Part shown: positions 452 to 17,556 of the stretch, in pieces
Numbering within the stretch: position 1 is the first letter of the stretch
Layout of the letters: the number at the start of each line of letters is the position of its first letter
DNA from: an uncultured Rickettsiales bacterium
Lineage (GTDB): Bacteria; Myxococcota_A; UBA796; UBA9615
DNA: 64,000 bases
NCBI GenBank assembly: GCA_964344575.1
Contig: CAYFOA010000005.1
Coordinates: 15,105-79,104, forward strand
Direction of reading: 5' to 3'
Position numbers and translations under genes: made by a program
Notes under the pieces: generated by a model
What the model was told of the DNA's origin: nothing
The model's database searches: none
Seen by the model: the letters and a program-made list of their open reading frames with translations, nothing else

Positions 452-494
452 CGGCGTGCCACCTTAGCGCAGGGGAGGCTGCTAGCTTCGGGCC

Positions 495-1253
495 GTGTTG
501 CGCCGCCTGACGTGGGACCAGTGGAGGGCGCTGGAGGACGAGTTCGCCGCGCTGGATCCGCCGACGGAGCGGGAGCGCGCCGACGTCGTCGGGCTCTACC
601 TCGTCGCCTGCCTCGCGCTGTGGGCCTCCCAGGACCTCCACAAGCCGCTCTGGTACGCGATCAAGGGGGCGTCCTGGATCCCCGGCGAGCACCGCAGCCT
701 CGCCCGCCACCTCGTCTGGTGCTGGTGGGTCATCGCCTGCTACTCGGTCCCCGCGTGGGCGTACGGCCGGTACGTCCTGGGGATGTCCCTCCGCGACCTC
801 GGGTGGCGGACGGACGGCCTGCTGAAGCACGCCTGGATCTACGTCGCGGGGTTCGCGATCGTCCTGCCGCTCGTGTTCGTCGTCGCTCCGACGCCGGGCT
901 TCCAGGAGACCTACCCCTTCTACCGCGGGGCCGGGAGGGACCTCGGCCCGACGCTGCTGTGGGAGGCCTCGTACGCGGCCCAGTTCGCCGCGCTGGAGTT
1001 CTTCTTCCGGGGGTTCCTCCTCTTCGGGGCGTTCCGCGTGGTCGGCCCGTGGGCGATCTTCGCGATGATGCTCCCCTACCTCGCCATCCACTTCCCCAAG
1101 CCGCCCCTGGAGGCGCTCGCGTCCATCGTCGCGGGGGCGGCGCTGGGGCTGGTGGCGCTGAGGACGAAGTCGATCGTGTTCGGCGTCGTCATCCACGTGG
1201 GCGTGGCGTGGACGATGGACGCGCTGGCCGTCTGGCACCGGGGCGCCGCGTGA
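495..1253 (+). CDS. CPBP family intramembrane metalloprotease (CAAX protease / Abi-like)
   Basis: Polytopic membrane protein with the EExxxR motif (ALEFFFRGFLLFG) and downstream FxxxH / HVGVAW motifs typical of the CPBP/Abi family. Confidence 0.75.
   Translation: MLRRLTWDQWRALEDEFAALDPPTERERADVVGLYLVACLALWASQDLHKPLWYAIKGASWIPGEHRSLARHLVWCWWVIACYSVPAWAYGRYVLGMSLRDLGWRTDGLLKHAWIYVAGFAIVLPLVFVVAPTPGFQETYPFYRGAGRDLGPTLLWEASYAAQFAALEFFFRGFLLFGAFRVVGPWAIFAMMLPYLAIHFPKPPLEALASIVAGAALGLVALRTKSIVFGVVIHVGVAWTMDALAVWHRGAA
1201..1240 (+). repeat. 3' end of the CPBP gene, copy A of a long-range direct repeat
   Basis: The sequence gcgtggcgtggacgatggacgcgctggccgtctggcaccg has a 27-nt exact core that recurs at 16107..16146. 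Confidence 0.7.
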
Positions 1254-1271
1254 GGGGGAGCCCCCGAGTCT

Positions 1272-2006
1272 ATGATCTTCGCGTTGGACACCACCCGCAG
1301 AGCGTGGGACCGGCGCCGCGCGGAGCGGGCGGTCTACCGTTGGAGCCTCGGGCTCGCCGCCGGGATCGGGCTCGCCGCCGCCGCCCTCCCCGGTGAGCTC
1401 GGCGCCATCGTCGCCCGCCGCGGGTACGGGTTCTTCGCCTTCTGGTACCTGACCGTCATCCTGCTCAGCACCCCGTGGGCGCGCTTCCACCGGGGGCGGG
1501 CCGTCGCCCGCGTCATCGCCGTGCGCGAGGCCCTGGGCAACGCCACCACCTTCCACGTCGCCGGCCACGTCCTCGCCATGGGTCTCATGGAGCCGCGGTA
1601 CCTCGTCGACTACCGGAACCCCGAGGACCTGCCCGGGATCGTCAGCTCGACGATCGTGGCGATCCTCGCGATCACCTCGCTCCCGGGCGTCCGGCGGCGG
1701 ATCCCCGGGGTCGCGTGGAAGCGCCTCCACCGGTGGGTCTACGTGGCCTGGGCGCTGATCGTGCTGGTCGTGGTCATGAGCCGGCCGTACACCGCGATCC
1801 CGCACATCGGGATCGTGCTCGTCGTGATCGGGTACCGCGTGGCGCTGTGGCGCGACCGGCGGCGAAAGGGGCACCGCATCGCGGCCGCGGACCTCGCAAA
1901 CTACGCCGCGATGACGGCGACCTTCGCGACCGTGATCGTGCTGACGATGCCCGAGGCGATGAAGGACGGGCTCGGGATCGGCCTCTTCGCGGGGATCGGG
2001 TCGTGA
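1272..2006 (+). CDS. Integral membrane protein, possibly a ferric-reductase-like (MsrQ/YedZ-type) b-heme domain
   Basis: Six predicted TM segments with conserved His residues in TM helices (FHVAGHVLAMGL, RLHRWVYVAW, AIPHIGIV). The family assignment is tentative. Confidence 0.55.
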   Translation: MIFALDTTRRAWDRRRAERAVYRWSLGLAAGIGLAAAALPGELGAIVARRGYGFFAFWYLTVILLSTPWARFHRGRAVARVIAVREALGNATTFHVAGHVLAMGLMEPRYLVDYRNPEDLPGIVSSTIVAILAITSLPGVRRRIPGVAWKRLHRWVYVAWALIVLVVVMSRPYTAIPHIGIVLVVIGYRVALWRDRRRKGHRIAAADLANYAAMTATFATVIVLTMPEAMKDGLGIGLFAGIGS

Positions 2007-3688
2007 GCGCAGCGACGGAGCCGCCGCCGCGCGGGTGGCGCGTCGTGCGGGCGGCGGGCGCCGTCGTCCTGGTCTGGATCGCGCTGGACCTTGTCTTCGG
2101 GGTCGCCCTTCCCGGCGCCGCGACCCTGGAGCAGCTCGCGTTCGCGGCCGTCGTCGAGCTTCCGGTCTACGTCATCTTCGGCGGCCCCCTGGTGTGGACG
2201 GGGGGCGCCGCCGCGATCGTCGCTGCGATCACGCTGCGGAGCCGCTTCCCCGGCCCTGCGGAGTTCCTCGGGGAAGCGTTCCAGGCCGCCGCGTGGGCGG
2301 TGGTCGGAACGGCCGGGATCGTCGGCGTGCTGAAGCTCCCGGTCCTGACGCTGCCGCTGGTGGCGGTGGCCGCGGGGAGCGCGTTCGTGCACGCGCGCGC
2401 CGCCCCCGATCGACCGACCGGACGCGCTCGCACCGCGGCGGCCGTCGCCCTGGTCGCGGTCGTGGGCGGGGCCGCCGTCGTGCAGCTCCACGCGCTCGTC
2501 TGGTCGGACGAGCTGTGGCGGTCGATCGTGGCCGCGATCGACGACGGCGCCGCCCCCGCGCGCGTCGCCCTGGTCGGCTCCGTCGTCGCCGCGGCGGGGC
2601 TCGTCGCCACGCTCCTGCCGATCCCGTTGGAGCGCCTCACGACGGACCGCGCCATCCCCCGCTGGCTGCCCCGATTCGCCCTCGGTCTCTTCCTCGCCGG
2701 CGCCCTCGGTCACGAGCGCGCGCTGGCGGGTCCGTACTTCTCGCTGTGGGGGATCGACGTGCCGGAGGCGCTGCACCGGCTCGACCGCGACCCGCGCCGC
2801 GTGCACCCCGAGGCGTTTCGGCTCGCGGCCACCGACGACGGCTCCACGCTGCTCGTCGTCTACCGCCAGAGCACCCGCCTCGCCCTCTACTCGAGCCGGG
2901 GCGGCGGCGGCCGCGGGATCCCGCTCGCCCTCCCCGACGAGGGCACGCTGGAGAACGTCGTCTGGGACGGCGCGCGGGATCGCTTCCTCGTCAGCTTCGA
3001 GCATGACGACCCGACGGCCCCGGACGCGCTCCTCGTCGTCCCCCGCGCGGGCACCCCGATCGGGCGACTGGAGGTCCCCGACCACGGCTGGATCGCCTCG
3101 CTGACCATCGACGGCGACGACCTCCTCATCGGCTACGAGGCGCGGCCGACGCTGCTCCGCTGGGATCTCGCGACGGACCGCCCCCGCGAGCCCCTCCGCC
3201 TCCCCCGCCTCGGAGACGTGGAGGACGCCGTCGCGGTCGGGGGGAGGCTCTACACCGTGCCCCTGCACCACCCCTGGGGGCTGCACCTGAGCGAGGTCGA
3301 CGTCGACGCCGGCGCCATCACCCGGCAGCTCCGCATCGGGGGCGCGAACCAGCAGCTCGTCGCGGCCGGAGACCGCCTCCTCACGGGCCGCTACTACGCC
3401 TCCCGGGTGACGGTCATCGACCGCGTCGCCTGGCGCGTCGAGCGCTCCCTCCGGGCGGGCTTCGGGGTGCGCGCGATCGGCGTCGACGTCGGGCGCGGCC
3501 TCGTCGTCACCGGCGGGCAGTACGCGGGGGAGCTGCGCGTGCACGACCTCGCGGACGGCCGCGAGCTCGCCCGCGTCCCCAGCTGCGGCTACGTCAAGGA
3601 CCTCGTCGTCGTCCGCGGCGCCGCCTTCTTCGCTTCCCTGTGCGGGGTCTGGCGCCTCGACCTCGACGCCCTCGAGCAGGCCCCGTGA
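2003..3688 (+). CDS. Membrane-anchored hypothetical protein with a C-terminal beta-propeller-like domain
   Basis: The GTG at 2003 overlaps the upstream stop (GTGA). The N-terminal 200 aa are hydrophobic and the C-terminal ~350 aa are repeat-like and soluble. It shares a frame with track ORF 1475..3688. Confidence 0.55.
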   Translation: MSAATEPPPRGWRVVRAAGAVVLVWIALDLVFGVALPGAATLEQLAFAAVVELPVYVIFGGPLVWTGGAAAIVAAITLRSRFPGPAEFLGEAFQAAAWAVVGTAGIVGVLKLPVLTLPLVAVAAGSAFVHARAAPDRPTGRARTAAAVALVAVVGGAAVVQLHALVWSDELWRSIVAAIDDGAAPARVALVGSVVAAAGLVATLLPIPLERLTTDRAIPRWLPRFALGLFLAGALGHERALAGPYFSLWGIDVPEALHRLDRDPRRVHPEAFRLAATDDGSTLLVVYRQSTRLALYSSRGGGGRGIPLALPDEGTLENVVWDGARDRFLVSFEHDDPTAPDALLVVPRAGTPIGRLEVPDHGWIASLTIDGDDLLIGYEARPTLLRWDLATDRPREPLRLPRLGDVEDAVAVGGRLYTVPLHHPWGLHLSEVDVDAGAITRQLRIGGANQQLVAAGDRLLTGRYYASRVTVIDRVAWRVERSLRAGFGVRAIGVDVGRGLVVTGGQYAGELRVHDLADGRELARVPSCGYVKDLVVVRGAAFFASLCGVWRLDLDALEQAP

Positions 3689-6096
3689 TCGTGCTCCAGA
3701 CGGCCGCCATCGTCGCGGTGGGGGTGTTCGTCTTCGGCCTCCCCGGCGCGCTCCTGGGCCGGCTCCTCGTGCCCCGCGCCGCCCCTCACGAGCGCCTCGT
3801 GCTCACGGGCGCGGCCGGCTTCTCCGTGCTGCCGCTGGGGCTCTACCTCGTCGCCACCTTCGCCGACCGGCCCATCACGCCGGGGTTCGTGCTCGTGGCC
3901 GCGGCCGCGGCGAACGCCTCGCTCGGGGCGGTCCTCCTCCGCCGGGGCGGGGACGTCGAGCGACCGGACACCAGGGCGCTCGCCGCCACCGCCGCGATGC
4001 TCGTCGCGTTCGGCGTGCTGCTCGCGGGCAGCGTGCAGCCGATCGGCGGCGTCGACGTCTTCGCGACCATCCACCACTGCATGTACGTGATGGTCCTGTA
4101 CGCCATCGGGAACGACCCGAGCGTCGGGATCCCCCTGTACGACGGCGTCGATCGCACCGTGCTGAGCCTCCTCGCCCACCACCCCCACGAGCCGCTGGGC
4201 GGCCTCGGCGGGCTCTTCGGCGAGCAGCGGCCCGGCAACGTCGCCCTGCTCGCGCCTCACGTCAGCCTCTTCGGCACGGTCGGCTGGCTGACGGCGCCCG
4301 TGCTCGCGTCGACCGTCGGCGCGGCGGCCTGCTACGCGGCGGCGCGGGAGCTGGGCGCGCGACCGGCGGTGGCGGCGGTCTGCGTCGGGGCCGGCATGCT
4401 CGGCGTGCACTCGTTCCTCGGCTACGTCATCAACGAGAACCTCTTCGGCTTCGCGCTCCTCGCCGTGTTGACGTGGCTGCTCGTCCGGCGCGACCTGTCC
4501 CCGGGGATGCTCGTGCTGGCGGGGTTGCTGATGGCCCACGTCGTCGGCGTGCGCTACACGGCGTGCCTGTTCTGGCCGGCGCTGGCGTGGCGGTTCGCGA
4601 CGGTCGAAGCGGTCGGCCGGCCGGCCCGGCGCGCCGCGCTGTGGGCGGTGCCTGCGGGGGTGCTGTCGGTGCCCTGGCTCGCCCTCAACGTCGGCCTCCT
4701 CGGCACCCCCTTCGCGCACCCCGCCGGCGCGCTCGATCTCGACGCTTCCGTGGTCGAGAACCTGCTCCCGGGGACCGACGCCGTCTTCCGCTTCAAGGCG
4801 CTGAACTACCCGTTCGCCGAGGCGCTGGTGCGCGCGCCCTGGAACCCGTTCCCCAACGCGCTGATGGTGCCCCTCCGCACGGCCCAGGAGCTCGGCGCGC
4901 CGCTGCTGGCGCTGGGGCTGGGCGGGCTCGTCCTCCACGCGGCCGGGGATCGGCGGCGGGCGCTCGCGCTGCTGGCCTTCGCGGCGCCCCACCTGCTCGC
5001 GATCGCGTGGCTGGAGAACCTGAACCGGGCCCAGCTGACGTACGTCGTGCTCGGGCTGGCCCCGCTCCTCGCGTGGGCCGCGGGGGGCGCGGAGGCGGCG
5101 GTCGCGCGGCCGCGGGATCGGGCGACGTGGGCCGCGCTGGGGGGCGCCGCTGTCCTCGTCGTGGGGGGCGGGTTCGTCGCGCGGGCGGTCGACGTCCCCC
5201 CGGACGAGCGCCTGGCCGGGGACGGCGCCGCGATCGGCCCCGACCCGGGGCTCGCCCGCGAGCTCACGACCCCGCGGCTGCTGCCCGCCCTCGCGCCCCT
5301 CCGGACGGACCGGCTCGCCGCGACGGCGGCGGCGATCCGCCACCACCGCTGGCGGCGCGGGGACGGCCGCTACCGCTCGGGCGAGGTCGCGATCACGGTG
5401 CCGGTGGGGCGCGCCGAGCCGACGACGTGGAGCTTCACCCTCACCGGTCGCCCCCACCGCCGCGAAGGCGATCCGGTCCGCACCTCCCAGGGGCTCCAGA
5501 CGGTGACGCTGGCGCTGCCGGTCGCCGAGGTGGAGGTGCGCGTGCGCGGCGCCCGGGGGGAGTACGAGGTCGCGGTCGATCCCGTCGGCCCCGAAGGGGA
5601 GGTCCACGACTTCACGTTCTTCGTCCACGGCTGGTCGCAGCCCACCCACGCGGTGGCGGTCCGCTGGAAGGGGCTGCCCCTGCCGGACGTGCGCTTCGAG
5701 CAGACGGAGTCCGAGCACGAGTGGCGCACGGGCGTCACCACCAACGTGCCCCCGCGCCTGCTCGGCCTCGTGGACGTGCCGTTCACGGTCGACCTGGGCG
5801 GGCTGGAGGCGGACTGCGGCTACTTCACCTTCGTGGGGCGGGGCGGGGGAGGGCACCGACACCCCTGGACGGGGGCCCGGTCGGGCACGATCCCGCTCCC
5901 GCCGGCCCTGCGGACGGACCGCGTCGTGTTCCTCCCCGACCCCTACTGCCGCCCGGGCCCGCCCCAGCCGGGCGCGCGCTACGCCGAGGCGGCCGGCCCC
6001 TTCGGTCCGGGACGCCCGATCCGCCTCCGCGTCGATCGCGCCTTCGGGCTGCGAGGGGGCGGCTGGCTCGAGTTCCACGACCCCCCGGGCCGGTAG
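3640..6096 (+). CDS. Polytopic membrane protein with a C-terminal soluble domain, possibly a GT-C-type glycosyltransferase
   Basis: About 11 TM helices followed by a ~300 aa non-membrane domain. An alternative start is the GTG at 3685, which overlaps the upstream stop as GTGA. Confidence 0.6.
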   Translation: MRGLAPRPRRPRAGPVIVLQTAAIVAVGVFVFGLPGALLGRLLVPRAAPHERLVLTGAAGFSVLPLGLYLVATFADRPITPGFVLVAAAAANASLGAVLLRRGGDVERPDTRALAATAAMLVAFGVLLAGSVQPIGGVDVFATIHHCMYVMVLYAIGNDPSVGIPLYDGVDRTVLSLLAHHPHEPLGGLGGLFGEQRPGNVALLAPHVSLFGTVGWLTAPVLASTVGAAACYAAARELGARPAVAAVCVGAGMLGVHSFLGYVINENLFGFALLAVLTWLLVRRDLSPGMLVLAGLLMAHVVGVRYTACLFWPALAWRFATVEAVGRPARRAALWAVPAGVLSVPWLALNVGLLGTPFAHPAGALDLDASVVENLLPGTDAVFRFKALNYPFAEALVRAPWNPFPNALMVPLRTAQELGAPLLALGLGGLVLHAAGDRRRALALLAFAAPHLLAIAWLENLNRAQLTYVVLGLAPLLAWAAGGAEAAVARPRDRATWAALGGAAVLVVGGGFVARAVDVPPDERLAGDGAAIGPDPGLARELTTPRLLPALAPLRTDRLAATAAAIRHHRWRRGDGRYRSGEVAITVPVGRAEPTTWSFTLTGRPHRREGDPVRTSQGLQTVTLALPVAEVEVRVRGARGEYEVAVDPVGPEGEVHDFTFFVHGWSQPTHAVAVRWKGLPLPDVRFEQTESEHEWRTGVTTNVPPRLLGLVDVPFTVDLGGLEADCGYFTFVGRGGGGHRHPWTGARSGTIPLPPALRTDRVVFLPDPYCRPGPPQPGARYAEAAGPFGPGRPIRLRVDRAFGLRGGGWLEFHDPPGR

Positions 6097-6106
6097 AATC
6101 GACGCG

Positions 6107-9100: not shown

Positions 9101-10633
9101 GCGCTGTCGGTGCCGGCGCACGACCAGGTGGCGCTCTGGAACGTGCCCGGCCTGTTCGCCCCGAAGCCGCTCCGCCTCCGGCCCGACTGGTCGGTGGGGC
9201 TCGTGCTCGCGGCGGCGTTCGTCGTCGGAGGCGCGGGCACCCGCGACCGGCGCCTGTTCGCGTTCGCGATCGCGCTCTACGCGACGGGCATCGCCGGGGG
9301 AGTCCCGATCCTGCGCTACCTGTTCGCGCCCCTGCTGCTCGTCACCCACCCCGTCGACACGTTCTGGGGGGCGCTGGCGCTGCTCCCCGGCGCCGCGGTC
9401 GGCGCCCTCGCGCTGGACCGGCTCCTCGCCGAGGACCGGGTCGCGTTGGCCGCCCGGCTCCGGGGACCGGCCGGCGCGGTGCTCGGCGTCGTCCTCGCAG
9501 GCGGCGTCCTCCGCGTCGCGCTGGCCTCGTCGTGGCTGCCTTCGGAGGTGGAGCGGCAGGGCGTGCTCGTCGCCGCGCTCCAGGCCGCCGCGGTCGTGGC
9601 GGCGCTCGTCGTCGTCCTCCGGATGCCCCCCGGCCGGCGCCGCACCGCGGCCGTCGCGGCGATCGCGCTGATCGACCTGGCGGCCCTGGCGGTCCGCTTC
9701 CACACGGCCCTGCCGTCGGTCCCGCTGGAGCTGGCGGACCGGGTGGAGGACGCGGACGCCGAAGCCCTCGCCGGCGGCTACCTCCACCTCGGCGAGTTGG
9801 CCGACCTGGAGGGCTTCCTCTACGACACCGGGGGGATGGGGCCGAGCGCCGACCTCGCCGACGAAGGGGAGAACTTCGACGACCTCGCGCGGTACCTCCG
9901 GGAGAACATCGTCCACCTGCGCTGGCCCGTGCACCTCGGCGTGGGCCGGGGGATCCGGGGGGCGAGCGGGCGCGCGAAGATGCCGCCTCGCCGGCCCCTG
10001 GCGCTGCTCGCGCCGCTGGCGGACGCCATCGTCGGCGACGGCCCCGAGCGCAAGCGCCTGGAGGACGACCACCCCGAGCTGATCCGGCCGCTGTTCCGGG
10101 ACGCCTCCGCCCTCGGCACCAACACGCTGCGCCTGATGCGCGTCCGCACCGCGGTCGGCGGGATCGACGGCTCGCTCCGGTTCGACGCGGGGCCGCCCCA
10201 GCCCCGCTGCTGGACTGCCCCGTCGGTGCGCGTGCTCGCCGGCGAGGACGAACGCGTGGCCGAGCTGCTGGCGGCTCCCTTCGACCCGGCGGCGCCCGCG
10301 ATCGTCGAGGACCCGACCCTCGCCGAGCGCCCGCTCGTCCCCGCCACCGCCCGCTGCGACGACACCGGCGACGTGGCGGTGGAGGCGACCGGCCCGGCCC
10401 TCGTCGTGGTCGGCGAGACCTGGCACCCGGGCTGGCGCGTCGGCGACGGCCGGCCGACCTTCCCCGTCAACCAGGTCCACTTCGGCTTCTTCGCCGACGC
10501 CTCCGACGAGGCGCCCCTCGCCCTGCGGTTCGTCCCCCCGGGGCTGCTCCCCGCGGCGGGGGCGTCGGCGCTCGCCTGGCTCACCGTCGTCGGCCTCGCC
10601 CTCGCGGCGCGCCGGTCCGGGCGCGGGGCCTGA
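6107..10633 (+). CDS. Tandemly duplicated YfhO-like membrane protein (two YfhO-family modules fused, 1508 aa)
   Basis: Both halves start with the YfhO-like N-terminus (HGTLPWEWLRTAWRTGQSPWYAPGVVGGAPLL and HVVPLFEWLRTALLEGRSPWFVPGKLGGTSLF). Both end with the YfhO C-terminal W-HPGWRV motif (ERWHPGWRV and ETWHPGWRV) plus a terminal TM helix. Confidence 0.75.
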   Translation: MRSAPLAVALLGTLAVAAPMLFGQGVDAADDLVYHGTLPWEWLRTAWRTGQSPWYAPGVVGGAPLLSDAVYMAPFYPASWLVLVLPVHVAYPLVCVLHALGAALATWWLARRLGASPGSAALAGAAIGMGPLGATGIVDGRPMQWAIVVWLPVAFGCLEALKSAEGRARWRWVGGAGIAIALVLLGAHLRLAAAAGAVLVLRVLLGGLPRGPASVAVALGLLGGAPAVLPLLLEWREASAGGTAAGSLLAAMAGPAFGGIHPDNVPGLLAPTPRAMRPDYSVGLVLGAALILTAGRGRLAWRSAGGRLVALWGIVATAVFLASFPGVRYLTAPLLLITHPVNDMYLGAVLPVVAATGALALDEATARFGERPRSLGRRGLVVAVLVVGAVLVAALPSDQITDAWTRGLYLLGAGRAVAIAVAAWRMPARTWVPLGMADVALYALALHVAVPSTPLRLDRPAAQEYAELRDGYADFIDLANMEPTRYSGEGRGFVFDGEFPPYRLFVEQTQELLDGRSVPLGYAAAHGVRALAGEHKLTSVRQSVALEPLLARMPRDGPPTDADVDVILAVPEAARVIALHGIGMAVGPRRGVRVPGPIAPPCYSPDRFVVEPDPAARMRALLAAPFDPRRAWLEAPLPADVSTAAEVTCPSSRAVAANAADGPALIVFGERWHPGWRVLDEDGTERRPMPVNQIHLGVVVEPGQHRLTLDFVQPGLAAAGACALGAWFLLLGLVAPSLRETAAAAPPPPEARGWPTAAAVALSAAVALPLAVGRGVDLPDDALFHVVPLFEWLRTALLEGRSPWFVPGKLGGTSLFADASIHPLYPGVWGVLALDAHHALVASMVLHAVGTVFAVRWMARSFGASATSATLAGAGVAAGTIGCLSAIDVMVDTWPVFLWFPVALGALERLRLAPADDAAAARRWTAVAGAAVALMLLGSHLRYGAAAGAALGVWALWRPGRRAWALGALAIGLAGGAVALVPSLLEWQHAASDTARAAALSVPAHDQVALWNVPGLFAPKPLRLRPDWSVGLVLAAAFVVGGAGTRDRRLFAFAIALYATGIAGGVPILRYLFAPLLLVTHPVDTFWGALALLPGAAVGALALDRLLAEDRVALAARLRGPAGAVLGVVLAGGVLRVALASSWLPSEVERQGVLVAALQAAAVVAALVVVLRMPPGRRRTAAVAAIALIDLAALAVRFHTALPSVPLELADRVEDADAEALAGGYLHLGELADLEGFLYDTGGMGPSADLADEGENFDDLARYLRENIVHLRWPVHLGVGRGIRGASGRAKMPPRRPLALLAPLADAIVGDGPERKRLEDDHPELIRPLFRDASALGTNTLRLMRVRTAVGGIDGSLRFDAGPPQPRCWTAPSVRVLAGEDERVAELLAAPFDPAAPAIVEDPTLAERPLVPATARCDDTGDVAVEATGPALVVVGETWHPGWRVGDGRPTFPVNQVHFGFFADASDEAPLALRFVPPGLLPAAGASALAWLTVVGLALAARRSGRGA

Positions 10634-10635
10634 GG

Positions 10636-12750
10636 ATGGTGCGGTCGCGGCGCGCGATCCACGCGGCGTCGGCCGCGCTGTTCGGCTTCGTCGCGATCAC
10701 GGGGCTGTACGTGCTCCTCGCCGAGCTGTTCACGCCCGGCTACTTCCCGATGCTCGCCGCTCACGTGTACGTCGGCCTGCTCCTCGCGATCGCCGTGCCG
10801 ATCGGGCTGGGGCTGCACCTGAAGCGGACGTCGTCGCCCGGGCTCCGGTCGATGCTGCCGGTGGTCGCGCTCCTCGCGATCCCGACCCTGCTGGTGGAGA
10901 TCGCGCTGCGGGCGGAGATCCGGAGCGTGCAGGACGTGCCCAGTCGGGACGGGCTCGACCGGCTGTTCGGGGAGATCGCCCTGCTCGTCTGGGGCACCGA
11001 CGGCGGCGACGGCGCCACGGTGGGGTCCGCGGCGGGCCTCGCGACCGGGCTGGCGCTCTTCTCCGCGGCGCTGGCGTGGTGGCTGCGCGAGCGGCAGCCG
11101 TCGGTCCCGGTGCGGTGGACGGGGGTGCTCGCGACGGCGGCGCTCATGCTCGCGGTGACGACCGGCCTGACCAGCTGGCTGGGGCGGGGGGACGCGCGCT
11201 TCGACGCGTTCGCTGCCCACTCCCTGGTCGGCCTCCTGTGCATCGTCGCGACCGTCGCCCACCTCCGCGCGCCCCGCCGGTGGCTCGGGCCGCGCCTCGG
11301 CGCGGTGGCGCTCGTGGCGGTGCTCGCGGGGGCGACCTGGGCGTGGGTCGAGACCTACCCCGAGGAGCACACCTGGCGCGTGCAGGACGACGTCCCCGAG
11401 ATGGGCCCGCGGGACCTGCACGCCGACGGTGCAGACCTCGGGCAGCCGATCGACGCCTCGCTCCTCGAAGGCTCGGCCGGTTGCGGCGAGGCCGGCTGCC
11501 ACGAGGCCCTCACCCACCAGTGGCAGGGGTCGGCGCACGCCTTCGCGGCGGACAACGCGCTGTACCGGGCGGTGGTGCGGCAGCTCGTGAGCGAGAGGGG
11601 CGCGGGCGAGGCACGGTTCTGCGCCGGCTGCCACGACCCCGTGAGGGCGCTCGCGGGCACGGTCGAGGCCGCGTACGCCGCCGGCGATCCGCCTCCCGGC
11701 GAAGGCGTCTCCTGCGTGGTCTGCCACGTGATGGTGGCGCACACCGGCGAGCCCAAGAACGGAGACGCCGCCTACCGCACGCCGATCCCCTACCCGGGCA
11801 CCGACGAGGACCAGCGCGCGGCCCGGATCCGGCTCGATCCGCGCTACCACCGGATGACGATGACCTCGCCGCTGACCGTGCACCGCGAGCTGTGCGGCAC
11901 CTGCCACCGCGTCCGGCTCGGTCCGTTCATGGGGGCCGCGGTCGAGGTCGAGGTCCAGAACGCGTACGAGGGCGAGGGCTCGATGGGGGGGTACGGCGGC
12001 ACCAGCCAGCTCTGCAGCGACTGCCACCTGCCCACGACGACGGAGCAGCCGCGGCACAGCCTGCTGCTGTACGACCACCAGATGGGTGGGCTGAACCTCG
12101 ATCTGCCGGCCTACGTGACCCACCCCGAGGCCGACCGGGCCGCCCTGGCGGACGGCGTGGCCCGAGTCGAGGCCATGATCGCGGGCGCGCTCCCCGACGG
12201 GCGCCAGTTCCCGCCCCCGCCCTTCGTGGCCGACTGGCCGCTGGCCGAGGGCGCGCCGGGGGTCCTCGCGGTCGAGGTGACGCCGACGCGCGTCGCCGAC
12301 CAGCTGGCGGTGCGCGTGACGACCGGGAACCCCCGCATCGGGCACGCCTTCCCCGTGGGCCCCTTCGACCTGCGGGAGGTGTGGCTCCGGGTCGTCGTCC
12401 GGGACGATGCCGGAGACGCGATCGCGACCCTCGGCGCCCTGGACGCCGACGGCCGCGTGCCCGAGGACGCGCCCCGCCTCGGCGCCGTCGAGCTCGACCG
12501 GTCGGGGCAGCCGCTCCGGCGGCACCGCATCTGGGACGTCGCCGGCGTCCGCGACAAGCGCACGATCCCCCGCGGCGGCACCGTCACCGACGACGTCGTG
12601 CTGGCCCTGCCTCCGGACGCGGCCGGGCCCCTCACGGTCGAGGCGACCTGGCTGGTCCGCCGCACGAACCCCGACTTCGCCGCCTTCGCGCTGGGGCCCG
12701 AGCACCCCGGGTTCCCCGTCCACGAGGTGGCCTGGGGGCGGTCGCCGTGA
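10636..12750 (+). CDS. Membrane-anchored multiheme c-type cytochrome
   Basis: N-terminal ~6-TM domain with His-containing helices, then four canonical CxxCH heme motifs (CAGCH, CVVCH, CGTCH, CSDCH) and one CX4CH (CGEAGCH). The start is the first ATG after the upstream stop. Confidence 0.75.
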   Translation: MVRSRRAIHAASAALFGFVAITGLYVLLAELFTPGYFPMLAAHVYVGLLLAIAVPIGLGLHLKRTSSPGLRSMLPVVALLAIPTLLVEIALRAEIRSVQDVPSRDGLDRLFGEIALLVWGTDGGDGATVGSAAGLATGLALFSAALAWWLRERQPSVPVRWTGVLATAALMLAVTTGLTSWLGRGDARFDAFAAHSLVGLLCIVATVAHLRAPRRWLGPRLGAVALVAVLAGATWAWVETYPEEHTWRVQDDVPEMGPRDLHADGADLGQPIDASLLEGSAGCGEAGCHEALTHQWQGSAHAFAADNALYRAVVRQLVSERGAGEARFCAGCHDPVRALAGTVEAAYAAGDPPPGEGVSCVVCHVMVAHTGEPKNGDAAYRTPIPYPGTDEDQRAARIRLDPRYHRMTMTSPLTVHRELCGTCHRVRLGPFMGAAVEVEVQNAYEGEGSMGGYGGTSQLCSDCHLPTTTEQPRHSLLLYDHQMGGLNLDLPAYVTHPEADRAALADGVARVEAMIAGALPDGRQFPPPPFVADWPLAEGAPGVLAVEVTPTRVADQLAVRVTTGNPRIGHAFPVGPFDLREVWLRVVVRDDAGDAIATLGALDADGRVPEDAPRLGAVELDRSGQPLRRHRIWDVAGVRDKRTIPRGGTVTDDVVLALPPDAAGPLTVEATWLVRRTNPDFAAFALGPEHPGFPVHEVAWGRSP

Positions 12751-14411
12751 GCCGGGCCCGGTGCGCCTGGTTGCTGGCGGTGCTGGCCGCCTGCCCCGCG
12801 CCCGACGACGACGACGACTTCGCCGTGGGCGACGACGACGACGACGACGCGACGGTCGAGACCCGTCCCCTGGGGCCGGGCTCCGAGGGGGACTTCGCCT
12901 GGGGCGACGACGTCGTCTGCGAGGACCCCTTCGCGGGGTGGGCCGGCCGCTTCGTCGAGGACGGCGCCGATCGCGGGCTGACCGAGGTGCTCGCGGGGGA
13001 GCTCATCGAAGACGGCGGCATCTACGAGGGCTACGCGTCCGTCGTGCCCGCCGACCTCGACGGGGACGGGGACCTCGACCTCGTCTTCGGGCACGACGGC
13101 GGCGCCGTGCACGCGTACCTCAACGACGGCGCCGGGGACTTCGACCCGGCCCCGACCTTCGAGTCGCCCCCGACGTGGCCGCACGGAGACCAGCCGCCGC
13201 TCCTCGCGGTGGCCGACCTCGACGGCGATGCGCTGCCCGAGGTCCTCGCCGTGGGGGAGCAGGCCTGGGTCTGGGACGACCTCGGGGACGGCTCGTGGGG
13301 CGCGCCCGCCGTGATCGCGGCGTCGTTCGACGAGCCCCCGGCGGCGCTGACGGTGGGCGACACCGACGGAGACGGCGACCTGGACGCCGTGCTCGGCACC
13401 TTCGCGGCGGGCCCCGACGGCCCGTACTTCCCGGAGCTCCTCCTCCTCAACGACGGCGCCGGGGGGTTCACCGTCGCGGGCGAAGTCGTCGCGACCGCCG
13501 GCCACGTCAGCACCCAGGCGATCACGCTGACGGATCGGGACCTCGACGGGGACCCGGACCTGTTCGTGGCGGACGGGATGTTCGACGCCGCCGCCCCCTC
13601 GGCCTTCTTCACCAACGACGGCAGCGGCGGCTTCACCGACGAGGCGGCGGCCCTGTCGGCGGACCTCGTGCTCGCGGGCATGGGGTTCGCGACCTGGGAC
13701 TGGAACGGCGACGGCGCCTTCGACTACTGCGTGACCGACGTCGGGCCGGCGCGCTGCCTCGTGTCCGACGGCGGGGGCCGGTTCTTCGAGGCCACCGCCC
13801 AGATCGGGCTGGGGCCGGCGGAGCGGCCGTTCGAGGAGCTCGAGGTCGCCACGATCGGCTGGTCGCTGGACGTCGTCGACCTGGACCACGACGGCGTGCT
13901 CGACGCGGTGCAGGCGTCGGCCCCCGACTTCGGCACGGGCCTCGCCCCGGATCAGCTCCGCTGGCCGGACCTCGTGTGGCGGGGGACGTCCGACGGCGCG
14001 TTCGTCGACGTCACCGGCGGCTCCGGCTTCGGCACGTCCGACGCCAACTACGGGTCCGCGCCGGGCGACTTCGACGGGGACGGCAGCCAGGACATCGTCG
14101 TCGCCGGCCCCGGCCGCCGGCCCCGCCTCTACCTGAACCGGTGCAGCGCCGGGGGCTGGCTGGAGGTCGAGCTGCTCGGCCCCCCGGGCAACGCCGACGC
14201 CATCGGCGCCGTGCTGTGGGTCGACGGGGCGTCGCCGCGGGAGCTCCAGGGGCCGCGGGGGTGGGGGCAGCGGCCGAGCCGGTTCCACGTGGGCCTCGGG
14301 GACGCGACGGAGGCCTCGCTGGAACTCCGCTGGCCGGACGGTGCGGTCAGCACGATCGACCGGCTCCGGCCGCGTCGTCGCGTCGTCGTCACCCACCCTG
14401 CTGCGCGCTAG
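12747..14411 (+). CDS. ASPIC/UnbV plus FG-GAP repeat lipoprotein (CRTAC1-like)
   Basis: The GTG overlaps the upstream stop (GTGA). It has a lipoprotein signal (VSRARCAWLLAVLAAC), DxDGDGxxD FG-GAP repeats and a UnbV_ASPIC-type C-terminus (AIGAVLWVDG...FHVGLGDATEASLELRWPDG). Confidence 0.75.
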   Translation: MSRARCAWLLAVLAACPAPDDDDDFAVGDDDDDDATVETRPLGPGSEGDFAWGDDVVCEDPFAGWAGRFVEDGADRGLTEVLAGELIEDGGIYEGYASVVPADLDGDGDLDLVFGHDGGAVHAYLNDGAGDFDPAPTFESPPTWPHGDQPPLLAVADLDGDALPEVLAVGEQAWVWDDLGDGSWGAPAVIAASFDEPPAALTVGDTDGDGDLDAVLGTFAAGPDGPYFPELLLLNDGAGGFTVAGEVVATAGHVSTQAITLTDRDLDGDPDLFVADGMFDAAAPSAFFTNDGSGGFTDEAAALSADLVLAGMGFATWDWNGDGAFDYCVTDVGPARCLVSDGGGRFFEATAQIGLGPAERPFEELEVATIGWSLDVVDLDHDGVLDAVQASAPDFGTGLAPDQLRWPDLVWRGTSDGAFVDVTGGSGFGTSDANYGSAPGDFDGDGSQDIVVAGPGRRPRLYLNRCSAGGWLEVELLGPPGNADAIGAVLWVDGASPRELQGPRGWGQRPSRFHVGLGDATEASLELRWPDGAVSTIDRLRPRRRVVVTHPAAR

Positions 14412-14486
14412 GAGCGGCGCCGCGCCCGCCGCGCGAGGTCGAGCACGGCCTCCACGGGGCCCTGAGCCCACCGCCGATCCCGGCCT

Positions 14487-16091
14487 ATGCTGGACGATGG
14501 CGTGCGGCAGCTTCTCCCCGTCCTGATCCTCTCGGCGGCGTGTGGGTCGGTGCCCCCCGAGCCCGAGGCGACGCCCGGCGACCCGGCGGCGACGACCCCC
14601 GGCTACGACGACGGCAGCGCGCTCGCCGATCTCGGCTTCCGCCAGTCGCAGGTCGGTCCGGACGTCGGCTACTGGGCCCGGATCGTCGGCGGGGGGGTCG
14701 TCGCCGCCGACCTCGACGCCGACGGGTTCGACGACCTGTTCTTCCCCCAGGCCGCCGGCGCCAACGCGCTCTACTGGGGGCAAGGGGACGGCACGTTCGT
14801 CGCCGACGCCTCGCTCGCCTTCGACTCCGACGTCACCGTCGCCGCGTCCACCGCGGACGCCGACGGGGACGGCCGCCTCGACCTGCTGCTGCTCGGGCAG
14901 GACGTCCTCCGGTTGTTCCTCAGCGCCGGCGACCGCACCTTCGCGGAGACCGCCATGCCGCCCGTCGACGGCGTCGCGGCCACGTCCGCGTGGGGCGACC
15001 TGGACCTCGACGGGGACCTCGATCTGTTCGTCGGTGTCTATGCTGGAGACACGCCGTCGGAAGCCGCCGGAGGCACCGAGGCGGGGCGGCCCAACCTCTG
15101 GCTCCTCAACGACGGCGCCGCCACCTTCGAGCCCCTGCCCCCGCCCCCCGGCAGCGACGGCGCGCCCCTGCACGCCCTCTTCCGGGACTTCGACCACGAC
15201 GGCCGCCCCGACCTGCTCCAGGTCAACGACTTCGGCCTCGAGGGCGACTGGAACACCATGCTCTGGATGCGCGACGGCGAGGGCGGCTGGATCGACCGCG
15301 CCTCCGAGCTCGGCATCGGGCTGCTCGAGTTCCCCATGGGCGCGCTCCACGACGACCTCGACGGGGACGGCGTCGAGGACCTCTGGTTCAGCAACATCGG
15401 CGCCACCCGCGTCTTCCAGGGGCTGGCCGAGGGCGGCTGGGTGGAGGTGTCCGGCCTGTGGGGCGCGGCCCTGCCGTCGCACCACGAGTCCGTGAGCTGG
15501 AGCGTGCTGCCCGTCGACCCCGACGGCGACGGCCGGCCCGGCGTCTACGTCACCTACGGGCCCATGTCCGAGCTCGACCACGTGCCCGACGACCCCGACG
15601 TCTACTTCGACCAGCCCGACCGGCTGCTCGTCCCGACCTCCGGCGCCGACGACGCCCCGAGCCCGTTCGCGGAGGCGCCCGCCGGTACGCTGGCGGGGCG
15701 GCTGGACGGCAACCACCGGGGCGTCGCCGAGGCCGACCTCAACAGCGACGGGGTGCCCGACCTCGTGGTCGGGGCCGTCAACGGCGAGCCGCTGGTGCTC
15801 CTCGGGCGGCCCGGCGGAGGGCGACGGCTGGCGGTCGAGCTGCGCGATCCGGCGTCGCCCAACGGGTTCGCGATCGGCGCCCGCGTCACCGTCGAGGCGG
15901 GGGGGCGGACGTGGAGCCGCGAGCTCGGCGCGGGCGGGCGCGGGAGCCAGAGCGGCGAGGGGCCCGTGCTCTGGTTCGCGGTCGGGGACGCCGGCGCGAT
16001 CGACGGCCTGGCGGTGGCGTGGCCCGGCGGCGGGAGCGACGTCTTCGACGTGGACTGCGTGGACTGCCGGATCGTGCTGACGCGACCCTAG
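14487..16091 (+). CDS. ASPIC/UnbV plus FG-GAP repeat lipoprotein, paralogous to the preceding gene
   Basis: Lipobox LSAAC, FG-GAP repeats and a UnbV_ASPIC C-terminus (FAIGARVTVEAGG...VLWFAVGDAGAIDGLAVAWPGG). Confidence 0.8.
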   Translation: MLDDGVRQLLPVLILSAACGSVPPEPEATPGDPAATTPGYDDGSALADLGFRQSQVGPDVGYWARIVGGGVVAADLDADGFDDLFFPQAAGANALYWGQGDGTFVADASLAFDSDVTVAASTADADGDGRLDLLLLGQDVLRLFLSAGDRTFAETAMPPVDGVAATSAWGDLDLDGDLDLFVGVYAGDTPSEAAGGTEAGRPNLWLLNDGAATFEPLPPPPGSDGAPLHALFRDFDHDGRPDLLQVNDFGLEGDWNTMLWMRDGEGGWIDRASELGIGLLEFPMGALHDDLDGDGVEDLWFSNIGATRVFQGLAEGGWVEVSGLWGAALPSHHESVSWSVLPVDPDGDGRPGVYVTYGPMSELDHVPDDPDVYFDQPDRLLVPTSGADDAPSPFAEAPAGTLAGRLDGNHRGVAEADLNSDGVPDLVVGAVNGEPLVLLGRPGGGRRLAVELRDPASPNGFAIGARVTVEAGGRTWSRELGAGGRGSQSGEGPVLWFAVGDAGAIDGLAVAWPGGGSDVFDVDCVDCRIVLTRP

Positions 16092-16106
16092 CGGGCGCGG
16101 GGGCGG

Positions 16107-16146
16107 GCGTCGCCTGGACGATGGACGCGCTGGCCGTCTGGTACCG
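16107..16146 (+). repeat. Remnant copy B of the CPBP gene 3' end, in the intergenic gap upstream of the metalloprotease gene
   Basis: The sequence gcgtcgcctggacgatggacgcgctggccgtctggtaccg is 35/38 identical to 1203..1240. It still reads VAWTMDALAVWYRLRP* in frame, with its TGA overlapping the ATG at 16156. Confidence 0.7.
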
Positions 16147-16155
16147 TCTCCGGCC

Positions 16156-17556
16156 ATGAGCCGGCTCCTCCTCGCGGCGCTCCTGACCCTCCTGTGCGCG
16201 TGCCCCGCGCCGGAGTCCGAGCCGGTCCCGGTCGTCCCCGAGGACCCCGGCCCCTGGCCGATCACCACGGGGCTGAGCGTGACGGACGTCGTGGTCAACC
16301 AGGGGGTCGAGATCGCGCTGCAGCGCGACGGCGAGCCGGTCGCCGAGCGGAACGCCCCCGTCGTCGCCGGGCGGCCGCTCCTCGTCCGCGTCGCCGTCGC
16401 CACGGACTTCCTCTGGAACCCGCGGGAGGTGCGCGCCGAGCTGACCCTGCTCCAGCCCGACGGGACGTCCGACCGGCGCGACCAGGTCGTCTTCGTCGAC
16501 GAGGACGGCGACCTGCTCGACCCCGACACGACCCTGCACTTCCGGCTCGCGGCGACCGACGTCCTCCCGGGGACGCGCTTCGCCGTCAGCTTCTGGGCGA
16601 CCCGGGACCTGGGCCAGGACGGCGACCCCGTGGCGTGGCCCGCGTACGGCGAGACGGCGCCGCTGCTGGCCGACGACGCCGGCGGCCTGCTCCGCGTCTG
16701 GCTCCTCCCCGTCCGCTACACCGCCGACGGCAGCGACCGCCTCCCCGACACCAGCCCCGAGCAGATCCGCCTCCTCGAGGAGACGCTCGCCGGGATGCTG
16801 CCGGTGCGGGCCGTCGAGCTGTCGGTCCTCGACCCGATCGAGACGACCGAGCACTGGGACAGCGGAGGCGCGTCCATGGGCGCGCTCCTGAGCCACCTGC
16901 GCGACCTCCGCGAGAACCTCCACGTCCCCTGGGACACGTACCTGTACGCGCTCGTCAGCCCCCGCAACACGTGGGGCGGGTTCTGCAACCTCGGCTGCAC
17001 CGCGGGCATCTCCTACCGGCCCACCAACCCGATCAACGACCGCCTCCGCGTCAGCGTCGGGCTGGGCTTCACCGGGGTGAACGCCGCCTACGTGATGGTC
17101 CACGAGCTCGGCCACGCGCACGACCGGGGGCACGCGCCGTGCGGCAACGCCGGCAACGTCGACCCCGACTTCCCCTACGTCGGCGGCTGGATCGGGACGC
17201 GCGGGTACGACGTCGTCAACGACGTCCACTACGGCACCGTCGACGCGTACGACGTCATGGGGTACTGCGACCCGGACTGGGTGAGCGACTACACCTACGC
17301 GGCCGTCCACGAGCGGATGGGGGCGGTCGAGGGGCTGCGGGACGAGCACAGCGCCCGCGCGGTGGAGGACTGGACGGCGATCGACGTGTTCGGCGGCGAG
17401 GTCCGGAAGGTCCACCCGACGCGGTCGTTCGCGTTCACCCCCGAGGGCGATCGGGTCGACGTCGAGCTCCCCGACGGCCGCACGGTCGAGGGCTGGCGCG
17501 TCCCCATGACGCACATCGACGGGGCGACGATCTTCGTCCCCGGCGCGATCGACTAG
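16156..17556 (+). CDS. Secreted zinc metalloprotease lipoprotein
   Basis: Lipobox LLCAC and the zinc-binding motif HELGHAHDRGH (HExxHxxxxxH). The ATG overlaps the stop of a CPBP-gene remnant (CCATGA). Confidence 0.7.
   Translation: MSRLLLAALLTLLCACPAPESEPVPVVPEDPGPWPITTGLSVTDVVVNQGVEIALQRDGEPVAERNAPVVAGRPLLVRVAVATDFLWNPREVRAELTLLQPDGTSDRRDQVVFVDEDGDLLDPDTTLHFRLAATDVLPGTRFAVSFWATRDLGQDGDPVAWPAYGETAPLLADDAGGLLRVWLLPVRYTADGSDRLPDTSPEQIRLLEETLAGMLPVRAVELSVLDPIETTEHWDSGGASMGALLSHLRDLRENLHVPWDTYLYALVSPRNTWGGFCNLGCTAGISYRPTNPINDRLRVSVGLGFTGVNAAYVMVHELGHAHDRGHAPCGNAGNVDPDFPYVGGWIGTRGYDVVNDVHYGTVDAYDVMGYCDPDWVSDYTYAAVHERMGAVEGLRDEHSARAVEDWTAIDVFGGEVRKVHPTRSFAFTPEGDRVDVELPDGRTVEGWRVPMTHIDGATIFVPGAID

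Follow-up and report, generated by a model that had tools for sequence, protein, structure and literature searches.

A block of 14,906 bp carrying seven genes, g2 to g8, appears to have been inserted between the CPBP gene g1 and the metalloprotease gene g9 in this lineage, and the insertion is well supported by the comparisons below. The window is the whole 64-kb stretch of DNA analysed. The host is an uncultured, very G+C-rich and probably myxobacterial lineage. The explanation as a whole, namely insertion into the end of the CPBP gene, the reason why both copies of a repeat were kept, and the mechanism proposed below, is in our judgement probable. The block lies between the two repeat copies, and the features at its two ends are the following.

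2..463, minus strand: g0, radical SAM gene (Pfam PF04055), the conserved left neighbour, part of the backbone
495..1253, plus strand: g1, CPBP/Rce1-like intramembrane protease gene, 252 aa (Pfam PF02517)
1199..1240, plus strand: proximal 42-nt copy, exact core 1209-1235, encoding GVAWTMDALAVWHR
1241..1271, plus strand: left end of the DNA taken as inserted, with codons GGC GCC GCG, TGA and an 18-nt spacer GGGGGAGCCCCCGAGTCT before g2
16092..16104, plus strand: right end of the DNA taken as inserted, a 13-nt spacer CGGGCGCGGGGGC read from the sequence
16105..16159, plus strand: relic, taken as the displaced original CPBP 3′ end, made of the 42-nt repeat and TCTCCGGCCATGA; reads GVAWTMDALAVWYRLRP and a stop, its TGA overlapping the g9 ATG
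16156..17556, plus strand: g9, putative secreted zinc metalloprotease/lipoprotein with an invariant HExxHxxxxxH motif

The 27-mer TGGACGATGGACGCGCTGGCCGTCTGG occurs exactly at nt 1209-1235 and nt 16115-16141, both on the plus strand, so that the two positions given in an earlier note on this DNA are reproduced exactly. The near-exact flanks reported there are real, and the length of about 38 bp was slightly short. The similarity covers 42 nt (1199-1240 versus 16105-16146) with three mismatches, which are, proximal/distal, G/C at 1205/16111, G/C at 1208/16114 and C/T at 1236/16142. In both copies a TGA lies five codons past the 42-nt segment. The distal copy translates in frame as VAWTMDALAVWYRLRP followed by a stop, and its TGA at 16157-16159 overlaps the ATG at 16156, in agreement with the frame and coordinates first reported. 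Translation of the proximal copy gives VAWTMDALAVWHRGAA and then a stop, again in the same register. Only two exact direct repeats in the 64-kb window are longer than the 27-mer, and among the long ones it alone lies outside repeat-domain or low-complexity coding sequence. Around the repeats, third-position G+C is about 97-99%; thus their DNA identity adds little beyond the identical peptide. What the repeat demonstrates is shared ancestry and not an unusual degree of conservation of the DNA.

It is next to impossible that the junction structure is an assembly artefact, a chance match or a dispersed repeat. The 27-mer match arose in 0 of 100 shuffles, and a third copy was found on neither strand of the 64-kb window with up to 3 mismatches allowed. 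Its motif is confined to CPBP 3′ ends in about 1.5 Mb of fetched loci. A scan of public metagenomes with a degenerate pattern of the clade's CPBP 3′ end returned a sole match, L002, which is the orthologous CPBP site. With two copies in 64 kb, the repeat does not behave as a dispersed REP/MITE-like element with many unrelated sites. Contigs from independent assemblies of three other sequencing runs contain both junctions at 99.8-100% identity, the left one in L009, L016 and L017 and the right one in L018. These independent assemblies were built with k = 127, far above the repeat length. The earlier note had weighed an assembly error or a dispersed repeat against its own reading; the structure is no artefact, and the 27-mer is not dispersed in the sequence searched.

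In five lineages (L001/L002, L100, L101-L103, L003-L005 and L006-L008/L019) the CPBP gene is followed directly by the g9 orthologue (46-59% identical), with a stop/start overlap of ATGA or TGATG. The CPBP protein ends in W-Y-R in all five, like the distal copy. A rooted neighbour-joining tree of CPBP gives (((L001,L100,L101),window),(L003,L006)) with 200/200 bootstrap, so the uninterrupted sites bracket the window's branch and the five relatives fix the direction of change. Comparison with related genomes had been proposed together with the idea that genes 1272-16091 entered between an ancestral CPBP gene and the metalloprotease gene, and the five lineages and the rooted tree support that idea. 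The relatives are all metagenomic contigs with at most 76% protein identity, and the timing of the insertion is therefore loose. Synteny shared with them consists only of the radical SAM gene, CPBP, g9 and a more distant GT2/Yip1 cluster. Gene g0 is 85-90% identical in L001, L100 and L101, where it adjoins CPBP or lies near it. The gene after g9 was considered as the counterpart of the L001 Glu_synthase gene and rejected; the window has an AMP-binding enzyme there, then an amino-acid ABC transporter.

An ancestral block that all relatives had lost by exact recombination between the repeats would also yield these sites, as deletion between the repeats would restore the exact CPBP/g9 arrangement seen in them. 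Under this history the block would have been lost precisely and independently two or more times, on either side of the window's branch, and an insertion would still be needed to produce the relic. L003 and L006 are outgroups with CPBP and g9 uninterrupted and without trace of the block. The homologue search, at its sensitivity, detected none of the block genes in the assemblies of the relatives, and the third-position A+T of the block differs from that of the backbone (see below). We consider ancestry of the block very improbable.

With the CPBP-g9 overlap and the W-Y-R ends of the five relatives, the distal copy is best read as what it is by descent, the displaced original CPBP 3′ end, still overlapping the start of g9. 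This relic, 54-55 nt long, matches the L001 CPBP 3′ end at 41/42 nt within the repeat. Its 16-residue peptide VAW...YRLRP is one residue (V/I) off the end of P0004, and the final six residues, WYRLRP, are identical. It agrees with the relatives at all three sites separating the two copies and shares with them the W-Y-R tail, a rare CGT codon and the GTC GCC codons. At 1205, 1208 and 1236 the base in the proximal copy is shared neither with the distal copy nor with any of the five relatives. The suggestion that the repeat is a footprint of insertion thus stands, and the plain duplication of the junction does not, as the distal copy represents the original end and the proximal one has three differences and an unrelated five-codon tail.

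The earlier note offered as an alternative the deletion of a second CPBP paralogue. Tandem paralogues, CPBP-g2...g8-CPBP-g9, would then have existed, and all but the last 54 nt of the second would later have been removed. The structure now seen fits this, and the reading frame of the relic is intact. The history takes three events in place of a single one, namely gain of a gene by duplication or import, an insertion and a precise deletion. No second CPBP copy was found at this locus in the relatives, and no CPBP similarity upstream of the repeat at 16105, the spacer included. Nothing supports the deleted paralogue, and we regard it as improbable.

Gene g9 has no match in Pfam and only weak PDB matches, to reprolysins, with E about 0.3. 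In the last 13 CPBP codons, 7/9 degenerate codons are identical across six lineages, compared with 32% gene-wide (post-hoc binomial p of about 0.006). The final ~40 nt of CPBP are unusually conserved, synonymous sites included, probably because the translation-start region of g9 lies in them.

The body of g1 is native. It is 74-76% identical to its orthologues, is grouped with them in the tree and is phylogenetically congruent with the backbone, and no mosaic signal or boundary was found in g1. The window-specific differences sit in the variable N-terminal half, with ancestral states common to L003 and L006. Over nt 1170-1208 (about 39 nt) there is no synonymous change relative to L001 except at the 1205 and 1208 sites. 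The last five codons (HRGAA and a stop) are new, and g1 now ends in WHRGAA. The new tail is unrelated to the ancestral one, with 2/9 bases matching in three codons. Gene g1 is still full length (252 aa) and keeps its stop in the ancestral register, for which the chance is 0.4-0.9%. The tail W-H-R-G resembles the W-H-(K/R)-G tails common elsewhere in the CPBP family. The closest match of the proximal 42 nt is the relic (39/42), followed by the clade's orthologues (36-38/42); distant CPBP genes reach at most 33/42 and are ruled out as its source.

The origin of this tail could lie in homology-facilitated illegitimate recombination, in which linear donor DNA carrying CPBP(WHRGAA)-g2...g8 recombined in or upstream of CPBP. 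The far end of the donor would have been joined illegitimately 55 nt before the resident stop, replacing most of the resident gene and stranding its end. The order of elements fits (conserved segment, new tail, new genes, same segment, old tail, old downstream gene), and the process parallels the model in PMC5361080. A duplication step is then unnecessary, and donor versus recipient differences between the copies are expected. Such a donor only shifts the origin of the CPBP-g2 adjacency to an unseen locus: a g2-g8 homologue within 10 kb was found at 0/80 CPBP loci from species-representative genomes, and no g2 homologue adjoins a CPBP gene. The congruence of g1 with the backbone and its lack of a mosaic boundary also argue against it. 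We consider this origin unlikely.

The block itself contains the following genes.

1272..2006, plus strand: g2, ferric-reductase-like (MsrQ/YedZ-type) haem-binding membrane protein (Pfam PF01794), first in the block
2003..3688, plus strand: g3, membrane protein of unknown family, 561 aa, from a frame plot
3640..6096, plus strand: g4, polytopic membrane protein of unknown family, about 818 aa, start codon uncertain
6107..10633, plus strand: g5, 1508-aa membrane protein of two paralogous halves
10636..12750, plus strand: g6, multihaem c-type cytochrome (c554-like) with an N-terminal membrane region (Pfam PF13435)
12747..14411, plus strand: g7, FG-GAP/ASPIC-UnbV protein (Pfam PF13517, PF07593)
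14487..16091, plus strand: g8, FG-GAP/ASPIC-UnbV protein (Pfam PF13517, PF01839, PF07593), last in the block

The NCBIfam matches of g2 are MsrQ/MamZ-like and below cut-off. Its homologues elsewhere number only 4 in 5.8 billion proteins, and the donor arrangement CPBP(WHRGAA-type)-g2 is absent from all four contexts. No similarity was found between nt 1236-1271 and the sequence upstream of the g2 homologues. Gene g3 has no match in Pfam, NCBIfam or PHROG. Homologues in L010 are 60% identical for g3, 58.5% for g4, 61% for g5 (a 1513-aa protein) and 65% for g6, the last on the opposite strand; the two halves of g5 are separate genes in L015. The g2-g6 set recurs in another genome at about 60% identity with a different gene order. 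The block as a unit was not seen elsewhere. In L012/L013 an ASPIC protein gene is followed directly by the closest g2 homologue, which is the adjacency expected in a circular form of the block.

Third-position A+T is 3.3% in the block, roughly four times the 0.8% of the flanking conserved backbone genes (chi-square p = 3e-12); the block does not differ from the whole window, at 2.8% (p = 0.07). A promoter/terminator scan of nt 1-18000 gave nothing useful. Compared with shuffled sequences, the junction RNAs show if anything less structure.

Searches of g2-g8 by Pfam, NCBIfam and PHROGs and of most called genes in the rest of the 64-kb window by Pfam, together with a tRNA search, gave no integrase, transposase, phage-like protein or tRNA for the block or the window. 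No terminal inverted repeats were seen at the block ends by inspection. Candidate terminal inverted repeats, dif-like symmetry and recurring GGGCG motifs at the ends were set aside as uninformative at about 74-76% G+C. The donor searches, in a lineage whose sampling is thin, turned up neither a donor locus nor a circular form, nor an allele of this population with an empty site, and the public collections searched gave neither an empty-site protein of at least 90% identity nor a circle-junction contig.

The comparisons show that the ancestor had a CPBP gene ending in ...VAWTMDALA(V/I)WYRxxP, its stop overlapping the g9 start codon, and that g2-g8 entered within the last 55 nt of that gene. The original end (16105-16159) was thereby moved 15 kb downstream and survives as a non-coding relic fused to the start of g9. 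A second 42-nt copy, then five new codons and a stop in the old register, complete the working CPBP gene. Because CPBP and g9 overlap and the last ~40 nt are conserved, an insertion between these genes would spare both only if the shared segment were present twice, which may be why both copies persist.

The most likely route, which we put forward tentatively, is one reciprocal Campbell-type exchange. The end of the resident gene would have recombined with a look-alike of it that lay on circular incoming DNA, in the interval from g8 to g2. Either general recombination acting on the 27-nt identity or a site-specific recombinase now unlinked from the block would have made the exchange. The same-register stop and the family-like W-H-R-G tail suggest that the incoming DNA carried a CPBP-type end. 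Many genomic islands complete the gene they enter (PMC12884075), which favours this route. Against it are the lack of a recombinase or tRNA in the block and window and of a donor, circle or empty-site allele among the sequences searched. Coding sequence reaches to 13-31 nt from the repeats and thus leaves little room for a complex attachment site. The crossover is also awkward to place. Inside the 27-mer, it requires that the resident gene had already acquired two lineage-specific synonymous changes (GTG GCG) and that the incoming copy was relative-like; outside the 27-mer, it must fall in the 6-nt left edge. Neither placement is naturally expected.

Alternatively, the insertion may have been illegitimate or replicative with a 42-bp target duplication, through staggered breaks or template switching at short G-rich microhomologies, the duplicated segment being GGGCGT...ACCG. 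The copies would then have been identical at first, and the three differences would have arisen later in the proximal copy, freed from the g9-start constraint. The three differences are indeed all derived in the proximal copy, with the relic unchanged, and the nucleotide-level constraint in relatives explains a fixed relic. The absence of a recombinase gene and of any donor CPBP-g2 arrangement or CPBP-like spacer is in accord with it. Three mismatches placed at random in 42 nt leave an exact run of 27 nt often enough (P = 0.16) for it to be unremarkable. However, the same-register stop and the W-H-(K/R)-G tail would have to be put down to chance or to selection at a later stage. The rate of change since the insertion would also be high, at three changes within 42 nt of a functioning gene, when the 1170-1208 region is otherwise without synonymous change relative to L001 over a longer time. 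We know of no transposition system that makes 42-bp duplications, which counts against it as well. Target duplication is possible, and we rate it below the Campbell-type exchange.

A more speculative reading, which we doubt, is that g2-g8 form a recombinase-less, cis-mobilisable cassette moved by a recombinase encoded elsewhere. It is equally doubtful that the ~87-nt g8-g2 spacer would be an attachment site mimicking the conserved CPBP end of this clade. If true, an uncultured lineage resembling myxobacteria would have a means to insert whole metabolic gene sets between overlapping genes with neither being damaged.

The entry of a large block between overlapping, probably translationally coupled genes can be read unusually clearly at this locus, as survival of the original gene end places the insertion point to within a few bases. 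It is a clean case of an ordinary kind of genome rearrangement and reveals no new mechanism; its value is that of a well-documented case and a reference point for closer genomes or reads. The locus further draws attention to a gene set that is rare and uncharacterised; its members, a ferric-reductase-like protein, giant membrane proteins, a multihaem cytochrome and FG-GAP/ASPIC proteins, are found together in at least two lineages.

Several features recall integrative islands. Islands entering the 3′ ends of tRNA or protein genes complete them, their attL/attR identity blocks having been mapped by Islander and TIGER (PMC12884075), and one integrative element has a 27-nt att core (PMC12540744). 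Here also, direct repeats with 27-nt identity bracket a 15-kb segment missing in relatives, sequence brought in by the insert completes the target g1 and supplies a stop in the ancestral register, the original end survives at the far junction, and the insert is mildly unlike the neighbouring backbone genes, though not the window as a whole, in composition. In contrast to such islands, the block and the 64-kb window lack integrase, excisionase, transposase, phage and conjugation genes, the cargo consists of ordinary-looking co-directional membrane and redox genes not seen as a unit elsewhere, and the room left for an attachment site by the coding sequence is only about 87 nt. A transposon or insertion sequence, with its transposase, terminal inverted repeats and target duplication of 2-15 bp, differs from this locus, which has no transposase and a 42-nt repeat.

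In the effector-immunity arrays of Rhs, CDI and type VI secretion systems, C-terminal displacement produces orphan 3′ ends (PMC5361080 and references therein). The likeness is in the order, a conserved segment followed by a new end and genes, with the old end and the old downstream gene shifted yet kept. The displaced tip here is only five codons without a toxin domain, the cargo is seven unrelated genes without an immunity gene, and neither a family of exchangeable modules nor a donor with the anchor beside the cargo is known.

Campbell-type single-crossover integration would likewise give an insert flanked by direct repeats of a shared segment, the copies being hybrids. The exact identity of 27 nt is about the minimum length reported for efficient RecA-dependent exchange. 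Such integration needs a circle bearing a CPBP 3′ end of this clade, and only an earlier stay of the DNA at this site would account for one. A cassette of the kind outlined above would be analogous to Xer-dependent or satellite islands in relying on a recombinase encoded elsewhere.

A frame plot of positional G+C reveals an uninterrupted series of plus-strand genes at 495–17556, which includes the following features.

495–1253, +: g1, CPBP/Rce1-like protease
1199–1240, +: proximal copy of a 42-nt repeat, at the end of g1
1272–16091, +: the block, g2–g8
g2, +: ferric-reductase-like membrane protein
g3, g4 and g5, +: large membrane proteins without a Pfam, NCBIfam or PHROG family match
g6, +: c554-like multihaem cytochrome
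g7 and g8, +: FG-GAP/ASPIC-UnbV proteins
16105–16146, +: distal copy of the 42-nt repeat, the first part of a relic (16105–16159)
16156–17556, +: g9, putative zinc protease with an invariant HExxHxxxxxH motif, weak PDB matches to reprolysins and no Pfam match

The 27-mer TGGACGATGGACGCGCTGGCCGTCTGG occurs exactly at 1209–1235 and 16115–16141, both on the plus strand, as the earlier note had claimed. No third copy turned up in the window when up to three mismatches were allowed, and shuffled sequence is expected to give none. Alignment by eye and by script extends the similarity to 42 nt with three mismatches: G/C at 1205/16111, G/C at 1208/16114 and C/T at 1236/16142. Past ACCG the two sequences are unrelated, with TGA in each five codons beyond the common TGG. 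The proximal copy terminates in VAWTMDALAVWHRGAA*. The distal copy lies entirely inside the 64-nt gap between g8 and g9 and terminates in VAWTMDALAVWYRLRP*, its TGA (16157–16159) overlapping the g9 ATG at 16156, again as first described. The 27-mer ranks third by length among the exact direct repeats of the window, and the others of similar length sit in FG-GAP, MopE or Asp-rich repeat genes. The longest (40 nt) is formed by an 18-nt tandem repeat (TCCGTGGCGTCGTCGTCG) within Asp-rich coding sequence at 48078–48135; the nearby FG-GAP repeat gene (46129–47955, minus strand) has 16% third-position A+T, far higher than any other gene of the window. Third-position G+C around the 42-nt repeat is about 97–99%, so that identical peptides nearly force identical DNA; the repeat is best read as evidence for common descent, not for unusual DNA conservation.

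In independent assemblies of three further runs of the same project, contigs reproduce both junctions. L009, L016 and L017 cover the radical SAM gene, CPBP, g2 and g3 with 99.8–99.96% identity, and L018 covers the end of g8, the relic, g9 and the next gene with 100% identity. The structure is thus not an assembly error, a check raised by the earlier note, and an artefact is extremely improbable.

Homologues of the CPBP protein were sought in a collection of 5.8 billion proteins. The closest fall into two groups: a 99% identical variant of the same population, with the tail WHRGAA, and five more distant lineages with 65–76% identity. In all five the CPBP protein ends in W-Y-R-x-x-P or W-Y-R-S-G, and P0004, one of these, ends in WYRLRP exactly like the distal copy. 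A g9 orthologue (46–59% identity) immediately follows the CPBP gene in 5/5 lineages, with an ATGA or TGATG stop/start overlap, in agreement with the proposal that the block was inserted between ancestral CPBP and metalloprotease genes. A neighbour-joining tree of CPBP, with more distant CPBP proteins as outgroup, has the topology (((L001,L100,L101),window),(L003,L006)) with bootstrap 200/200 at every node. The window's branch has uninterrupted lineages on either side; on this phylogeny, adjacency is ancestral and the 14,906-bp separation derived in the window's lineage. The opposite history, an ancestral block that was then lost, requires at least two precise losses plus an insertion to create the relic, and is very improbable. 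The MAG records with CPBP loci L019 (CAYQEG010000003.1, G+C about 72%) and L045 (CAMAVY010000011.1) bear the titles 'uncultured Rickettsiales' and 'Klebsiella pneumoniae'. The remaining CPBP matches are mostly Myxococcota; both titles look like taxonomic mislabels or contaminant contigs.

A radical SAM gene lies close upstream of CPBP in L100, L101 and the window. The gap is 31 nt in the window and small in L100 and L101, whereas in the L001 lineage about 6.5 kb (2317–8830), with a bpMoxR AAA+ ATPase gene, a bpX6 gene and unknown genes, separates the two. Different genes have been gained in this neighbourhood in each lineage.

Wherever the two copies differ in DNA sequence, the distal one has the bases of the relatives. 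GTC GC(C/T) ... TAC CGT is present in 5/5 relatives and in the distal copy, which keeps the T-ending CGT codon, rare in this genome. This agreement identifies the distal 55 nt, by their sequence, as the displaced original end of CPBP. Of the duplicated junction described in the earlier note, the CPBP-type end at both junctions stands; the distal copy alone is the original end, and the proximal copy carries GTG GCG ... CAC CGG. The uninterrupted site would read CPBP ...GTCTGG joined straight to TACCGTCTCCGGCCATGA. The comparisons show an insertion inside the final 55 nt of CPBP, flanked on each side by the conserved 42-nt segment. Deletion of a second CPBP paralogue, which would have left its end before g9, is very improbable. 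No mosaic boundary was found in g1; the sites at which it departs from the three closest relatives are in the variable N-terminal half and mostly have the state found in L003 and L006; the body of g1 is, on these comparisons, native.

The relic may persist through constraint on its nucleotides. Taking it as the window's representative, 7/9 degenerate codons among the last 13 CPBP codons are identical across six lineages, versus 32% gene-wide (p about 0.006, a post-hoc binomial estimate; two other conserved motifs score similarly). The CGT of TGG TAC CGT is kept in the relic (16142–16155) and in L001, L100, L101, L003 and L006 despite a third-position G+C of about 98%. This suggests nucleotide-level constraint on the CPBP 3' end, of which the simplest cause might be that the segment holds the translation-start region of g9, or an overlapping signal for its translation. 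Because the genes overlap, DNA could enter between CPBP and g9 without damaging either only if the common segment were present twice. Junction RNAs fold slightly worse than shuffled sequences, and a scan of 1–18000 gave neither promoter-like sites nor informative terminator-like ones. The relic also holds a 12-codon putative mini-ORF (16121–16159, ATG GAC ... CCA TGA, MDALAVWYRLRP*) with a stop that shares bases with the start codon of g9; if translated, it could preserve termination-reinitiation coupling; no convincing ribosome-binding site was seen upstream of it.

The origin of the block was sought through its genes. Only four other g2 homologues exist in the collection of 5.8 billion proteins (62–71% identity). 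The best, P0125 (71%), is a fragment of 164 aa that spans 67% of g2, and none of the four adjoins a CPBP gene. No g2–g8 homologue lies within 10 kb of CPBP in 80 loci of species-representative genomes, mostly Myxococcota. One other genome (L010/L011; GCA_024229515.1, a MAG) carries homologues of g2, g3, g4, g5 and g6 together, with about 60% identity. Their order (L010 66–20683/L011) differs from that of window 1272–12750, and radical SAM genes are interspersed, so the block genes are a functional set, not a fixed mobile unit. The g2–g6 set possibly encodes a membrane redox or envelope system not characterised before; in L010/L011 it adjoins three radical SAM/B12 genes, an M50 protease gene and a Rieske oxygenase gene. 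The closest full-length g2 homologue lies directly downstream of an ASPIC protein gene in L012/L013, an arrangement expected in a circular form of the block. Two paralogous halves, each about 750 aa long, make up the g5 product (6107–10633, 1508 aa). In L015 (4224–8850) they are encoded by two divergently oriented genes, and in L012/L013 a g5-like half is fused to an FG-GAP/ASPIC domain, indicating gene fusion and fission within the family.

Third-position A+T in the block is uniformly 2.7–4.4%, versus 0.3–1.5% in flanking backbone genes (p = 3e-12); the lineage-specific parts elsewhere in the window have similar values. The block has an overall G+C of 0.763, the remaining window 0.727. This composition fits, but is not strong evidence for, arrival later than the backbone. 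A second lineage-specific stretch (27287–36662), with third-position A+T likewise raised in most genes, lies between backbone genes 26295–27206 and a GT2 gene (36676–37476), which are neighbours in L001. It contains an unknown 425-aa gene, HAD hydrolase, TetR, an OEP/HlyD/AcrB efflux system and two small genes.

As the leading model we tentatively infer that circular DNA with a look-alike of the CPBP end between g8 and g2 would have recombined, Campbell-type, with the resident gene end. Such an exchange accounts for the long direct repeats, for the completed gene with its stop in the old register (chance 0.4–0.9%) and for the W-H-R-G tail, which is similar to tails common in the CPBP family. 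Many genomic islands complete the gene they insert into in this way (PMC12884075). However, a recombinase gene is absent, and the allocation of the three mismatches is explained only if two lineage-specific synonymous changes came before the exchange or the exchange fell at the 6-nt left edge. That mismatch pattern fits an insertion, illegitimate or replicative, that duplicated a 42-bp target, the proximal copy diverging after release from g9 constraint, and this rather unlikely course is consistent with no donor look-alike having been found. It leaves the same-register stop to chance or later selection, and no system is known to make duplications of 42 bp. A proposed origin of the orphan ends seen in type VI secretion and Rhs arrays is displacement by homology-facilitated illegitimate recombination (PMC5361080). 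Displacement of this kind fits the architecture of the locus, yet would require an unseen donor with CPBP already adjoining g2, and the donor and mosaic tests are both negative; it is improbable. About as improbable is that the block is a recombinase-less cassette whose attachment site mimics the CPBP gene end and which depends for its movement on a recombinase gene located elsewhere.

Neither the block nor the rest of the 64-kb window yielded an integrase, transposase, phage-family protein or tRNA; the window looks chromosomal because it holds ruvAB, lpxC and yebC. The locus works like genomic islands in the 3' ends of protein-coding genes, with a flanking identity block, an uninterrupted site in relatives, a completed target gene and a displaced old end. 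It differs from a site-specific island in having no integrase, and is therefore not classed as one. It is similar in form to 3'-end displacement, but with negative donor and mosaic tests. The locus is a well-documented case of a known kind of event.
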